DNA of 38,635 bases, from contig CBDATR010000001.1 in the NCBI GenBank assembly GCA_965200155.1, positions 1 through 38,635 of the forward strand. Reading direction: 5' to 3'. This stretch comes from Nitrosopumilaceae archaeon (GTDB lineage Archaea; Thermoproteota; Nitrososphaeria; Nitrososphaerales; Nitrosopumilaceae). The position numbers and the translations under genes are program-made. This document shows positions 10,744-38,624 of the stretch, piece by piece (the first letter of the stretch is position 1; every line of letters starts with the position of its first letter). The notes below the pieces were generated by a model. That model ran no database searches, was not told where the DNA came from, and worked only from the letters and a program-made list of their open reading frames with translations.

Positions 10744-10934
10744 GGTGATAATTTACTAGCACTCAATATATAGCGTCAACCATAAGTCTTTGATCATGGT
10801 TTTTCATGGAGCCCGTACTGGACTGATCCAGTAAAGCAGTGCATGGCTTTGGTTATTGGTTACACGTTACACACTGCTGCCTCTGGTTGGGCGGCAGAGC
10901 CACCCCGTGGACGACTCGCTCATCCGCCCTATGC

Positions 10935-12110
10935 AGAGACCGGTTACTCCACGCCGCGTTGATATTGGAATTCAGGGTTACATCGGGTACGGGTAACCGG
11001 TTCCTCTGCCACTAGTTGGACTTGCCTGTGTGATCACATGGGCGGCATGCTTGCCTGGATATCCCACTGGCATGCATTTTGTTCAAGCTTACCGTATTCA
11101 GTAACCATGGTGTGGGCGGCATGCTTGCCTGGATATACCACTGGCATGGCCGCCATCCCTATCTGCTTGGCCTCGCACTTCTGGTCTGGTTTTTGTAGGG
11201 AGCCACTAACGCGGCTCTCTCACATGAGGCGGTTCATTGCTCGTTTGCGGTTCCCATCGTGAGCAGTCATCTTTTACGGACAAGTTCCCAGCAGCTACCT
11301 TGTCCATACTTTTAGTGACTTCATGGACTATCCTATTGATGGAGTCATTCGCGATATTACTGGACTTCTCTTGTAGTGATATTTGTTTCCACATCTTCCT
11401 CTGGCGGCGCCTGCCCTTCCGGGTTTTCACACTGTACGAGTATCTACTCTCCCACAATATCTCATGTTGTGAATCTGTGTCAACTGTTGTAGCTATGTGT
11501 TTGCCACCGACATCCACTCCTTGAACCACGCCAGTTGGTATGTATTCAGCACACTCCTCTTTGATATGCGCCTCAAGTAAGCGTTCTCGTGACTTTGTTT
11601 TCTTGTAGGCTCTCTCAACTATCTTGAATGAGCGCATATCCCAAGAACAATCAACCGGCTTTGTTGTTCTGACAAAGTCGCGCAGACCTACCCAAAACCA
11701 CCGCGTCTTGTTGGCGGCCTTGTACATTATAGTGTGATTATCCCGTCGCTCTTCCGGCGAGACGGGATGTTACCGGAATTATCCTCACATGTACGCGACG
11801 GACGCATCCATGATGGTATCCTCGCCATACACAATGGTAACTCGCGTAACCACTCATTATTATGGCGCCACCGGGAGCAGCTTGCTTATCATGCCATTTC
11901 TTAGCATGACCTTGGGCGGGTGGAACTGGCGAGCATTAACAGGCTCCACATATCCGGAATCTTTCCCTCGACTATATCCTCTGGTAAGTCGAATATGCCC
12001 ATCTCCTCGACTTCCGGTATGCATTCATCGACTGCCATGTTGAATGCCACCCGTGAGTGCTCGCCCATTATCTTGGCCCGGAGAGAATCTTGTCCGGTTT
12101 TATGATGGTA
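10935..12110 (-). pseudogene. tnpB: TnpB-family RNA-guided nuclease remnant; ends approximate
   Basis: RVAFNMAV (N-terminus), GVDVGGKH (RuvC-I), RQACRPCDH (zinc finger), NINAA (degenerate RuvC-III); multiple frameshifts. Confidence 0.8.
11039..11148. repeat. two 36-bp direct repeats separated by 38 bp
   Basis: tgggcggcatgcttgcctggatat(c/a)ccactggcatg at 11039-11074 and 11113-11148. Confidence 0.9.
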
Positions 12111-12188
12111 CGAATCCCTCTTATGGTGGCCGCTACAGTTACTGTGTTCCTCGCTCTATTTTTTAACCGGTATGATTCAATACATATT

Positions 12189-17310: not shown

Positions 17311-17414
17311 TTGACATGCCAAATTAACCACCTCCTTGGGGGCGCGCAAATAAGTCTGTGATAATTGCGATATTTTGATCAAATTAGTCGCCCAAAGACT
17401 TATGGTGGCCGCCA
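17311..17414. mobile_element. MITE-C remnant; left boundary approximate
   Basis: Ends in cttatggtggccgcca followed by TA; ttgacatgc segment shared with 38488-38578. Confidence 0.5.
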
Positions 17415-17464
17415 TAATTGTGGCGAACAGCCGCGCATAAATTTGGATATATTTGAACTCGTGC
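17415..17464 (+). repeat. highly degenerate right half of an old MITE-A
   Basis: taattgtggcgaacagccgcgcataaatttggatatatttgaactcgtgc aligns without gaps to the MITE-A 3' half. Confidence 0.65.
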
Positions 17465-20289: not shown

Positions 20290-20588
20290 GCAAGGCTGAA
20301 ACAGTGTACAGGAAATTGATGGAAGTACCACCGGGAAGCGTGGTCTCATACTCTGAATTGGCCCGAGCGGTGGGTATGGAGAATGGTCAGAGAGCGGTGG
20401 GTCGTATACTGAACCGTAATCCCTATCTGATTGCAGTTCCGTGCCACCGGGTCATAATGGCAGACGGGCGCCTGGGTGGCTATGTGGGCGGCTCTGAGGT
20501 AAAGGCGAATCTTTTAAGAAAAGAAGGCATAGTAGTGAAGGGCGATCGCGTGTGCGATATGGACAAGATAATGTACAGATTCCAGTGA
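20286..20588 (+). CDS. ogt: O6-methylguanine-DNA methyltransferase
   Basis: RAVG and PCHRV active site. Confidence 0.93.
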   Translation: MSKAETVYRKLMEVPPGSVVSYSELARAVGMENGQRAVGRILNRNPYLIAVPCHRVIMADGRLGGYVGGSEVKANLLRKEGIVVKGDRVCDMDKIMYRFQ

Positions 20589-20685
20589 CATACAGGACGA
20601 ATTAGGATGAAGAGTTCGGCTTGTATCGAAACCCGGACATGCCCAGAGATTAATGGTGCATACTGGAGAAAGGTGCATACACATG

Positions 20686-20777
20686 GTATGAGTTCACGTC
20701 TTCCGGAATCTTATGCACAAATCACATTAACTGTCGCGATCAGTTATGCGTAAATTTAGACACAGGTGAACTCATAC
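20686..20777 (+). mobile_element. MITE-A without TSD
   Basis: Full 92 bp; flanks tacacatg / cttgcatc differ. Confidence 0.95.
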
Positions 20778-20845
20778 CTTGCATCTGCTGATTTAGCCTG
20801 CCTGCCATCCCTGTCGTGATATTTTATGGAAAATCACCGCCAAGA

Positions 20846-20861
20846 CTTATGGTGACTGCTA
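20846..20861. repeat. MITE-C terminal repeat abutting tnpB copy B
   Basis: cttatggtgactgcta followed by TA. Confidence 0.7.
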
Positions 20862-20863
20862 TA

Positions 20864-21829
20864 CGAGGATCATTCTAATTACATACCACACCGGCTTGAC
20901 AATGACAGAATCATACCATCATGGGTAAGACCACCAATCCGTCGTGGTGAGTTCAAGTTGGGCCTGTGGGGTTTTGGTGTGGTGAGAACAACCAAACCAA
21001 TAGATCGTTCCCAGGGCATGCGCTCATTCAATATAGTTGAACGAGTAACCAATAGTAGGGAACGTCAATTCTAGATTCACATCAATATACGGGAGAAACC
21101 ACCTGCCGACCGGCGTTGTTCGCGGCGTGGATGTCGGCGGGAAACATCTAGCTGTAACAGCTGACACGAATGGCAGAACGATGATTCACAACATGAGACA
21201 TCGTTCCATATTGCGGGAGATTAGTGCACTCCAGAGTATTAGAACGCGAAAGGGTAAGCGCAGGAAGCGAAAGATTGAGAAACAAATCACTCAACTACGA
21301 CAAACATAGCGAGCGACTCCATGAATAGAGTAGTCCACGCGGTCACCAAAGGTGTGGACAAGGTGGTACTAGAGGATTTATCACCGAAAGCAGTGACCAG
21401 TCATGGCGGGAACCACAAAATAACAATGAACCGTTCCATGCGCGAGAATCGTGTCGGTGAGTTCCGCCGGAAAGCAGTACAAAAGTGCGAAGCACTGGGG
21501 ATTGAATTGGCATCTGTGCCAGCGAAATACACGAGGGGGCGGTTTACCCGCCCAACGAGCCAGACCTGTCATGTGTGTGGACACGTTGACGACAAATCAC
21601 GATCAACTAGGGACACTTTCAATATGTAACCAGGAATTTCACACCGATATCAACGCGGCGTTTAGTAACCGGTTTCCCTGTATGGGGCGGCAGAGCGTGT
21701 CGTCCGGGGGGCGGGGAACCGTTACCCGCCCAACCGGAGGCGTCATGGCGGGAATAATGGCGACAAGCCAAAGCCATGTACCATCCAGGAACGATGTGCC
21801 ATGTTCTCAAAGACTTATGGTGACCGCTA
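20864..21829 (+). mobile_element. tnpB: 5'-truncated tnpB element (copy B), pseudogene plus 3' end
   Basis: GVDVGGKH, VLEDL, TSQTCHVCGH, HTDINAA; collinear with copy A; ends cttatggtgaccgcta+TA. Confidence 0.85.
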
Positions 21830-21960
21830 TATTCAAGACTGCCAGTAGTGCAGCAGGACTTGCAAACAGGAAAATCGTCCCCATAACACGAACCACGGAG
21901 AGGCACGTTGTAAATTCTTCTAGAGATACTCTACATTTTTATTAATTTTAGAATGTTTTT

Positions 21961-23631
21961 ATGATCATGGGATCCCGCTTTTGTACCATACGACGCAATA
22001 TTGCAAGAACCCGGGACCTGATTATAGATGGTACGGCAGCGGCCGGTTCCGGTCACCCGGGCGGTTCGCTATCCATGGCCGAGATTCTGGGATGCCTCTT
22101 CTACAAACACATGAGGTACGACGCAAATAATCCACACTGGGAAGACAGAGACCGGCTCATACTGTCCAAGGGTCATGCATCACCCGGTCTTTACTCCAAC
22201 TTGGCGGTCTCAGGATTCATAGATGCGCAAGAGATCACAACCTTGCGGAGTCTGGGCAGCAGGCTACAGGGTCATCCTGATCTCAAATGCCCCGGCGTGG
22301 AATTCTGTGGCGGTTCGCTGGGAACAGGACTGTCATATTCGTTGGGGATAAGTCTGGCCATGAGACTTGATGGACGTGCATCCCGCGTATTTGTCATAAT
22401 CGGCGATGGTGAGTGTGATGAGGGGCAGATTTGGGAGGCCACCATGTCGGCTTCCAAGTTTGGCCTGGACAACCTCACAGTAATACTTGATCGTAATTAC
22501 GTCCAACAGGACTCATATACAGAAAATGTGATGCCACTGGATACTATATCCAGTGACAAGATGGTATCGGCCCGTACGGATACAGATTCCTGGAGGACAG
22601 GCCACAAGTGGCGTGCATTTGGATGGAATGTAATAGAGGTTGACGGTCACCGTATAGAGCAGGTTGACCGGGCGCTATCCCAAGCCGCAGAGCACCGGGG
22701 CGCGCCCACCATCATAATCGCCCGTACTGTAAAGGGCAGGGGAGTAGAGCACATGGAAGATAACCCGCAATGGCACGGCAAGGCACCCTCAAAGGATTTG
22801 GTGCCGATCATACATGCAGAGCTACGATCACAGACAGCCCTGGCCCCATCAATAATAGCGGGAGACATGACCCGCCTGGACCGGGAAGTGAGCAGATGCG
22901 ATACAGCAGGGGCCGACTATATACACCTGGATGTAATGGACGGCGTATTTGTCCCCAACCATACCTTTGATCATACCAAGGTACGGGAGCTGCGAGCCCT
23001 GACACATATACCTTTTGATACGCATCTTATGATAACTGATCCGGCTCACCAGGTATCCAAGTATGCAGAGGCAGGAAGCGATATCATAACAGTACACGCG
23101 GAGGCATGTACTCCGTCAGAGTTCGGCGAGATTCACGACTACCTAAAAAGTAATGATGTGGGTGCAGGCATCGCCATCAACCCCGGAACCGATGTGCCCT
23201 CCTGGATTACGCCCTTCATACCTACTCTGGACCAAGTCATAGTGATGTCCGTGGTGCCGGGAAAATCGGGACAAAAGTATATGCCAGAGGCACACAAAAA
23301 GACACAAAACATATCCGCATTGCTACAGGAAGGGGGCTTTGGAGGTGTGATAGAGGCAGACGGCGGGGTCAACATGGAGAATATTGGACAGTGTTTCAAT
23401 GACGGATGTCGGGCCTTTGTAGGAGGCAGTTCCATGGTAGGGCAGGCTGACATGGCAGAGGCCATGGGCGACATGCGCCTTGCCTTGCGTGATGCGCGCA
23501 GGCGGCATCTCATACAGGAAGCGTACAGCAGAGGCGGATCCCCGCTGGTGACACAATGGGCCCAACTGCACACCATAAACTCCACATTCGAGACAATACT
23601 GGATATGGCCAAGGAGGCCGGTTTGGCATGA
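21961..23631 (+). CDS. transketolase N-terminal subunit fused to ribulose-phosphate 3-epimerase
   Basis: SGHPGGS, LSKGH, GDGECDEG, then APSI, HLDVMDG.FVPN, DTHLM, EADGG. Confidence 0.93.
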   Translation: MIMGSRFCTIRRNIARTRDLIIDGTAAAGSGHPGGSLSMAEILGCLFYKHMRYDANNPHWEDRDRLILSKGHASPGLYSNLAVSGFIDAQEITTLRSLGSRLQGHPDLKCPGVEFCGGSLGTGLSYSLGISLAMRLDGRASRVFVIIGDGECDEGQIWEATMSASKFGLDNLTVILDRNYVQQDSYTENVMPLDTISSDKMVSARTDTDSWRTGHKWRAFGWNVIEVDGHRIEQVDRALSQAAEHRGAPTIIIARTVKGRGVEHMEDNPQWHGKAPSKDLVPIIHAELRSQTALAPSIIAGDMTRLDREVSRCDTAGADYIHLDVMDGVFVPNHTFDHTKVRELRALTHIPFDTHLMITDPAHQVSKYAEAGSDIITVHAEACTPSEFGEIHDYLKSNDVGAGIAINPGTDVPSWITPFIPTLDQVIVMSVVPGKSGQKYMPEAHKKTQNISALLQEGGFGGVIEADGGVNMENIGQCFNDGCRAFVGGSSMVGQADMAEAMGDMRLALRDARRRHLIQEAYSRGGSPLVTQWAQLHTINSTFETILDMAKEAGLA

Positions 23632-38487: not shown

Positions 38488-38578
38488 TAGCGAACACCAT
38501 ACTTTTTTGACATGCAAGACGGGGGGTTGTGTCCGTCAAATGCAGGATTTGTCACCCAGAGACTTATGATGGCTGTTA
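38488..38578. mobile_element. MITE-C (about 91 bp) inserted in MITE-B
   Basis: tagcgaacaccata ... cttatgatggctgtta+TA; same TIR type as the tnpB element. Confidence 0.6.
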
Positions 38579-38624
38579 TAGATCTGTGGCAAAATCAGCT
38601 GGCATACCCACTATTTTCATGACT

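Follow-up and report, generated by a model that had tools for sequence, protein, structure and literature searches.

The stretches that follow two broken tnpB genes in the window (the whole of the 38,635 nt of DNA analysed here) are probably relics of the omega-RNA (reRNA) scaffold of dead solo-tnpB elements that lay between borrowed transposon ends and whose intact copies in sister genomes keep the fold. We put the probability of this reading at about 0.7. The first-pass annotation of the window had proposed that the tail of both copies is a candidate omega-RNA scaffold ending in the terminal inverted repeat (TIR). The proposal gains ground from the relatives, in which the tail has covarying helices and lowered synonymous change and ends inside the inverted repeat. 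However, the copies in the window are dead, the consensus of the family is frameshifted, the window tails match the relatives' model weakly and the tail of copy B folds no better than shuffled sequence. For these reasons, and because the window tails carry derived insertions, we describe the tail as a candidate relic and not as a working omega-RNA.

Two broken tnpB copies and their shared tail

Copy A, on the minus strand at 10769..12137, is a full-length, frame-broken element of a diverged subfamily with a longest frame of 187 aa. Its parts are a left repeat (12137-12116), NINAA codons (10966-10952), the tail (10966-10769), a right repeat (10792-10771) and a TA (10770-10769). Copy B, on the plus strand at 20862..21831, is a 5'-truncated and frame-broken solo-tnpB element with a longest frame of 171 aa; homology to the family runs from 20862 to 21831/21832, and the first ~500 bp and the left end are missing. 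Full-length copies of the family, found in a search with a longer query, are ~1.5 kb and reach ~500 bp further 5' than copy B. An intact TnpB protein is absent from both copies. Domain remnants were recorded for PF07282 (21.1 bits at 21456-21602) and PF01385 (17.2 bits), and the DINAA codons at 21646..21660 (+), from the RuvC-III motif region of TnpB, align with HAD(V/I)NAA of the intact relatives.

The genome as a whole, which is 87.6 % complete, gave the same picture. A tblastn search with an intact relative found 44 tnpB-like places and none is intact. The longest stop-to-stop frame among them is 349 aa, as against 445-453 aa in the relatives, and the copy with this frame also contains a MITE. 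The majority consensus of 20 of the genome's own copies is frameshifted and has no frame of >196 aa. The family was therefore amplified after tnpB had broken, and both copies in the window are consequently non-functional relics.

Copies A and B were said to remain alignable for about 180 nt beyond the end of the conserved motif and then to part abruptly, and reading and aligning the two copies bore this out. The alignable stretch is ~185 nt past the DINAA codons (21646-21831 (+) in copy B, 10966-10769 (-) in copy A; ~185-200 nt overall), and each of the blocks said to be shared, namely agtaaccggt, gtcgtcc, a GC hairpin, ccaaagccatg and tcaaagacttatgg..gctata, was found in both copies. The likeness ends at ...GCTATA, which is position 21831 in copy B and 10769 in copy A, and the flanks beyond (ttcaagactg... 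in copy B, tattgagtgc... in copy A) are unrelated. The starts proposed for the guides, 21832 and 10768, are indeed the first bases past the element and its TA. The likeness of the two tails is not due to chance, as the BLAST E value for tail B against tail A is 2e-12 and in the window's genome a query of 206 nt from the tail gave 62 matches at E≤10, of which 21 reach ≥84 % identity over ≥133 nt.

The tail was also kept better than the decayed coding part, where equal or lower conservation would have spoken against a scaffold. In 60-nt windows, copy A and a typical copy of the B family are 85 % and 78 % identical in the tail and 31-76 % identical across 19 coding windows from positions 121 to 1260. 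Among close copies, tail identity is 92-98 %. Rfam gave no match, either for the whole window at the gathering score or for 21300-21900 at E≤10, and a tRNA scan of the window found no tRNA.

IS630-type ends here and IS1595-type ends in relatives

The tnpB elements of this genome have inverted ends of 22-24 bp, with (TG)TATAGCGCCCACCATAAGTCTTTG at the left and the inverted copy of this sequence at the right. The TIR that had been claimed is real, and is seen in copy A (12137-12116) and at 24-25 other left ends, but it is not visible from copy B alone because copy B lacks the left end together with the first ~500 bp. The right TIR of copy B, of IS630 type, lies at 21808..21829 (+) and is followed by TA (21830-21831). 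At ≤5 substitutions there are 150 copies of this 22-nt terminus in the window's genome, or 138 if a stricter pattern is applied. The terminus is abundant only there (138 matches, compared with 0-1 in four relatives), and the tnpB module is therefore found between IS630-type ends in this genome and between IS1595-type ends in the relatives.

The copies of the terminus are carried by several MITE families and by a decayed IS630-like element of 2,045 bp (C13:13691-15735) that is bounded by the same repeat and contains fragments of an IS630/Tc1-type DDE_3 transposase. The fragments score 25.1 bits in the genome search and 22.6 bits in the Pfam scan, where the cut-off is 28.6 bits. Six DDE_3 matches were found in the window's genome, all below the Pfam cut-off (best 25.1 bits) and three of the six with a stop. 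The tnpB elements thus have their ends in common with an IS630-type DDE element, as is expected of non-autonomous IS630 derivatives.

All ends in this genome read TA/TAGCG...CGCTA/TA, which fits a TA duplication or a TATA terminus alike; IS630 is described as duplicating TA (review, PMC13565253). At two nested junctions (window 20862-20863 and C43:17770), the copy that was interrupted has a TA at the break, and no empty insertion site was found for TA-ended elements. The first of these junctions is formed by the right-end remnant of an IS630-like element (20778..20863, +), which is identical to the right end of C13:13691-15735 and adjoins copy B at the TA. In the second case, an end remnant (C43:17770-17831) lies beside another 5'-truncated tnpB copy. 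Further solo termini of the same repeat family are found in the window at 17395-17416 and 38559-38580.

Other small repeats are present in the same region. A 92-bp MITE with the ends GTATGAGTTCAC and GTGAACTCATAC occupies 20686-20777 of the window and is also found inside the tnpB copies C10:368217-369744, C5:95601-97246 and C10:190892-192304; it has by far the top summed contig depth of the region in both DNA and RNA runs. Termini of the IS1595 type also occur in this genome despite the IS630-type ends of its tnpB elements, in MITE-like pairs ~250 bp apart (C5:38812-39059, C5:44293-44541, C10:487026-487274, C24:370711-370959 and C24:374836-375088).

An IS200/IS605-like element with hairpin ends was considered and ruled out by the inverted ends, the duplications and the failure to find a Y1 transposase (no PF01797 match in the window's genome, 87.6 % complete). 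The features of that transposon family are a Y1 transposase and ends with neither inverted repeats nor a duplication, whereas the inverted ends here are 22-24 bp and the relatives have 8-bp duplications.

As DNA, the tail was found in none of 200 other genomes of the family, including nine of the same genus, and the relatives were therefore reached via the protein. Translation of one of the genome's own copies led to ~450-aa proteins (445-453 aa) of Cenarchaeum/Nitrosopumilaceae with ~48 % identity. With an intact relative as the query (E≤1e-20), matches were found in eight of the nine same-genus genomes and two of the 191 others in the family; a metagenome scan by protein alignment yielded one weak locus and nothing more. 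The intact proteins carry the OrfB_IS605 and TNB domains (PF01385 plus PF07282, with scores of 61.1 and 35.5 bits in the relative P0005), and D223, E309, D395 and four Cys (CxxC..CxxC) are invariant in 13 intact sequences.

Beyond HADVNAA, the intact ORFs run on for ~55 residues to end ...I-stop, with the stop codon within the right inverted repeat, ...TGTATATAATTCCC. The tail is therefore also coding in working relatives. On the 3' side of the G100-type elements, the DVNAA codons lead to ...TATAATTCCC and then to the flank. The relatives' elements start GGGAATTATATAC... and finish with an inverted copy of it, which are ends of the IS1595 type. Examination of 33 loci gave 24 distinct elements with both ends, of which 17 have a perfect 8-bp duplication, two a near duplication and five none. 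A duplication of 8 bp is typical of IS1595.

The partner of these ends was found in the sister genome G100, where element L152 (C1:1769947-1772836) has an IS1595-family transposase (PF12762, 138.2 bits), a 34-bp repeat that starts with the 13-nt terminus of the tnpB elements, and an 8-bp duplication, CAATTTTA. Hence, the relatives' elements have both the ends and the 8-bp duplication expected of non-autonomous IS1595 derivatives. L152 also carries a passenger, an N6/N4 DNA methylase fused to an HNH domain and split into two frames. More distant TnpB families from the same genus and another genus, with ~30 % identity to the main clade, have elements that end in an identical ...ATAATTCCC (L153, L041, L051, L049 and L056). 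In L153, where this was read, the ORF likewise ends ...I-stop inside the repeat.

Fold of the tail and bases at the left end

The fold was examined in the relatives using an alignment (A3) of 34 distinct tails from genomes G100, G018, G065 and G145. RNAalifold proposed helices P1-P4 and the terminal hairpin E was added by eye, making 30 pairs in five helices; the outermost pairs of the RNAalifold structure (columns 1-3 with 167-169) and a helix P0 were dropped as unsupported. In A3, 94.0 % of cells are paired, as against 44-50 % when the partners are slid by 1-3 columns. Pairs changed on both sides number 9 of 30 (2-6 when slid) and the covariation score is 0.273 (0.04-0.09 when slid). None of 500 shuffles reached the observed pairing or covariation score and 121 reached the number of pairs changed on both sides, though these counts overstate the support because the sequences are related.

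The covariance model built from A3 (R1) also matches tails outside that alignment, both in the window's own genome and in the distant TnpB families, in which L153, L041, L051, L049 and L056 score 20-49 bits. A second alignment (A4) consists of 18 such further tails fitted to the model and has letters in only 272 of 540 cells; 90.1 % of cells are paired (34-49 % when slid), 19 of the 30 pairs are changed on both sides (3-7 when slid) and the covariation score is 0.120 (0.01-0.03 when slid). The covariation thus comes from about four lineages within a single genus, together with a few distant families, and the rows are interrelated. In helix 1 of the relatives (A3 columns 38-45/51-58), 96.7 % of the cells are paired. 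In P2, A-U is swapped for G-C and G-C for C-G between lineages with pairing kept, and while the 5' half always encodes Arg-Arg-Pro, the 3' half encodes other residues in G100 than in G065. In the terminal hairpin, all nine pairs are changed on both sides in the model-fitted alignment.

Substitutions in the coding sequence were compared between the last 56 codons and the rest of the gene. Among 14 G100 paralogues, the synonymous difference is 0.125 in the last 56 codons and 0.215 in the rest, and the amino-acid difference is 0.144 and 0.154, respectively. The corresponding values for all 19 ORFs are 0.174 and 0.319 (synonymous) and 0.288 and 0.267 (amino acid), and in codons 421-448 the amino-acid difference reaches 0.406 with a synonymous difference of 0.146. 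Synonymous change is lower in the tail and amino-acid change is not, which points to constraint at the nucleotide level. However, as the tail is coding in the relatives, part of its conservation is protein constraint. Codons 1-28 of the G100 tnpB also have low synonymous differences (0.116 compared with about 0.2); possible causes are a promoter that overlaps them, the left end or a constraint on the start region.

A covariance model had been suggested as the way to check the proposed scaffold. Its helices covary in the relatives' tails; however, the window tails match it weakly, copy B with 15.5 bits (E 0.002) and copy A with 12.5 bits (E 0.014). In the window's genome as a whole, R1 has 22 places at E≤0.01, the best being C34:175684-175864 with 73 bits. 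Compared with shuffled sequence, copy A folds better (z -4.10) and copy B no better (z -0.44). The tail of copy B (21640..21831, +), which on alignment to the relatives is a relic of the C-terminal coding end, is also a putative relic of the scaffold. In it, helix P1 (GGGCGGCA / TGTCGTCC, loop GAGCG; pairing in copy B assigned by eye) lies at 21685..21705 (+) and corresponds to helix 1 of the relatives. Helix P2 spans 21739..21800 (+), with GGCGTC (21739-21744) paired with TGTGCC (21795-21800), and encloses P3 and P4; the three are helices 2-4 of the relatives. Within P3/P4, on the same strand, ATGG (21757-21760) pairs with CCAT (21774-21777) and the loop ACAAGCCAAAG is conserved. The terminal hairpin E at 21798..21821 (+), taken from the centroid structure and with an equivalent in the relatives, pairs GCCATG with TATGGT inside the right inverted repeat. 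Judged by eye against the family consensus, P1, P4 and the terminal hairpin survive in copy B and P2 and P3 have one broken pair each.

Relative to the relatives, both window tails carry two insertions, of 6-8 nt and 24-30 nt. The shorter, around AACCGG, is the agtaaccggt block; it causes a frameshift in copy B and is absent from G100, G065 and the genome's own C34:175710-175864 (C34b). The longer is in copy B a 30-nt GC palindrome (21706..21735, +), absent from G100, G065 and the own copies C34b and C9a. Hence, although all the blocks assigned to the scaffold by the first-pass annotation are present in both copies, two of them, agtaaccggt and the GC hairpin, are insertions absent from intact relatives and were ruled out as parts of the scaffold. 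The GC palindrome GGGCGG..CCGCCCAAC is found at two sites in tnpB, in the Zn-ribbon part (21537-21556, in frame) and in the tail (21709-21734). The motif has 37 matches in the genome, a few of them at loci unrelated to the element, and could be a very small insertion, either mobile or templated.

If an RNA were made, the flank at 21832..21851 (+) would template the guide of copy B, and 10768-10749 (-) that of copy A, by analogy with the reRNAs of TnpB and Fanzor (PMC10711439); these flanks are unrelated between the copies. Among the 19 relatives' elements with a duplication, 18 have a G at position -1 of the left duplication, and three have the mirror C on the right. In this genome, 21 of 24 tnpB left ends have a C (G on the top strand) as the first outward base past the terminal TA; the two positions beyond it are each A in 15 of the 24, giving TTG-TA on the top strand. 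A C in the corresponding place was seen at four of 29 tnpB right ends and, among other termini that carry this repeat, at 17 of 87. What is expected of a TAM, a motif beside the left end only, was thus seen as a pattern, and a G that is confined to left ends, and that goes with tnpB rather than with the repeat they share with other elements, is suggestive of a TAM footprint. The IS1595-type MITE pairs of this genome were unusable as a control for the left-flank G, as they lie within larger repeats and have no clean duplications.

The metatranscriptome runs X5 and X6, which are from one study, were used as contigs only; they include pieces of the family, with no cover at 21840-21916, and starts, ends, strand and level are unreadable from them. 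For the DNA runs X1 and X3, also searched as contigs over 20300-22600, contigs cross 21803-22600. The RNA and DNA contigs count neither for nor against a transcript.

Three other explanations of the tail were weighed. If it had been conserved only as the C-terminus of TnpB plus a transposase-binding repeat, and had never functioned as RNA, then the stretch should be coding in intact relatives, as it is, and protein-level motifs should be kept, as is AAW.N..L.RA..VV in copy A; helix P0 and part of P1 also coincide with conserved Ala/Gly codons. We nevertheless regard this as unlikely, since it does not account for synonymous change in the tail that is about half of that in the rest of the gene with amino-acid change as high or higher, for P2 pairing that is kept though the 3' half encodes different residues, or for the drop in pairing from 94 % to 44-50 % on sliding. 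Alternatively, the ~200 nt could be a subterminal element acting as DNA, either as sites that the DDE transposase binds or bends or as a hairpin that the DNA forms for transposition. Hairpin E could indeed serve a transposase: it shares sequence with the inverted repeat, in G065 the palindrome occurs at both ends, and one left end (L053) has compensated changes. However, left and right ends have only 22-37 bp in common, in G100 only the right end has the 5' arm of E, P1-P4 lie 40-150 nt inside the element, and the tail is missing from the MITEs and the IS630-like element, which use the same repeat. A purely DNA-level role for the tail is on this evidence quite improbable.

It could also be that the system is still active, with transcripts of the window tails guiding a TnpB that is encoded elsewhere, in a portion of the genome missing from the assembly. 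In favour of this, the assembly is 87.6 % complete, contigs of the RNA libraries include pieces of the family and the tails of close copies are 92-98 % identical. We nonetheless consider continuing activity highly improbable, as none of the 44 tnpB-like places is intact, the consensus is frameshifted, the tails with their insertions of 6-8 nt and 24-30 nt match the model weakly and RNA libraries can contain DNA.

Proposed architecture and known systems

In the preferred reading, that of a relic guide-RNA scaffold, the last ~180 nt of the element in working relatives would code for the final ~55 residues of TnpB, form the folded scaffold of a guide RNA and end in the right repeat, and read-through into the flank would provide the guide. 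Such an RNA would presumably be made and direct TnpB, and RNA-guided DNA cleavage by the intact relatives is putative. As the element has no transposase of its own, its mobility would be provided in trans by a DDE transposase able to recognise its ends, through IS630-type ends with a TA target in this genome and IS1595-type ends with an 8-bp duplication in the sister genomes. The G (TTG in this genome) directly 5' of the duplication, at the left end only, may be the TAM footprint of TnpB-assisted retention or homing.

A wider proposal is offered tentatively, and we rate it as somewhat less than an even chance. A Cenarchaeum-like TnpB with its guide RNA may have been a passenger between borrowed DDE ends that switched between the IS1595 and IS630 types, each time rebuilding the terminal hairpin with the foreign repeat as its 3' arm. 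The G/TTG would then be the TAM footprint of retention or homing alongside cut-and-paste transposases, and the whole could be a prokaryotic counterpart, and possibly a model for the origin, of the Fanzor architecture.

The annotation of the window is settled by these findings as two dead solo-tnpB elements with probable relic guide-RNA tails, in a genome crowded with one IS630-type end. Intact TnpB elements with DDE-type ends (IS1595, IS630) are available in the sister genomes, where the proposed scaffold, the ORF end and the inverted repeat overlap, and these elements would allow co-operation between an RNA-guided nuclease and cut-and-paste transposition to be tested directly. They could also be a source of a compact archaeal nuclease whose TAM is very short. 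The intact relatives with IS1595-type ends, and the left-end-only G, are most worth following.

Among known systems, the elements resemble the DDE/IS630-associated and solo TnpBs described by Altae-Tran et al. (2023; PMC10691335) in having an IS605-OrfB-type TnpB inside symmetrical inverted ends with the 3' end of tnpB near the end of the element. That study reports symmetrical ends for IS630-linked TnpBs, inverted repeats flanking every DDE-associated TnpB, and solo TnpBs whose ends are borrowed; the resemblance of the latter ends to those of transposase-bearing elements implies mobilization in trans. The elements described here differ from those in lacking a transposase in cis, in having a Cenarchaeum-like thaumarchaeon as host and an ORF that extends into the repeat, and in the IS1595-type ends of the relatives. 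IS1595 does not occur in the main text of PMC10691335, and a full-text literature search for TnpB and IS1595 returned nothing about such elements, as judged by titles and abstracts. The 2026 review (PMC13565253) names ISL2, IS630 and IS1031 as DDE partners, and describes the association of OMEGA systems with DDE transposases as rare in prokaryotes and poorly understood.

In IS200/IS605 TnpB-omegaRNA systems such as ISDra2 (PMC13565253), as is proposed for the elements analysed here, the scaffold overlaps the 3' end of tnpB and the right end, and there is a short conserved motif (TAM or target) 5' of the left end. However, IS200/IS605 elements have a Y1 transposase and neither TIRs nor duplications (PMC13565253), whereas here the TIRs are 22-37 bp, the duplications are 8 bp or, putatively, 2 bp and no Y1 transposase was found. 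The elements are like IS630 and IS1595 MITEs in their borrowed ends and apparent amplification in trans, and the same termini bound short MITEs in these genomes. Unlike MITEs, they have a 1.35-kb nuclease gene and a tail with a predicted structure, and the flank preference at the left end only is absent from MITEs. Likeness to Fanzor1 and Fanzor2* (Yoon et al. 2023; PMC10711439) lies in non-autonomous elements that carry the nuclease only, with TIRs and short duplications of the target and with the TIR inside the predicted scaffold; the Fanzor reRNAs are reported there to include the TIR and the duplication and to extend about 15 nt beyond. Unlike Fanzor, the element described here is archaeal, its protein is an ordinary TnpB of ~450 aa (PF01385 plus PF07282) and its RNA scaffold is predicted from sequence.
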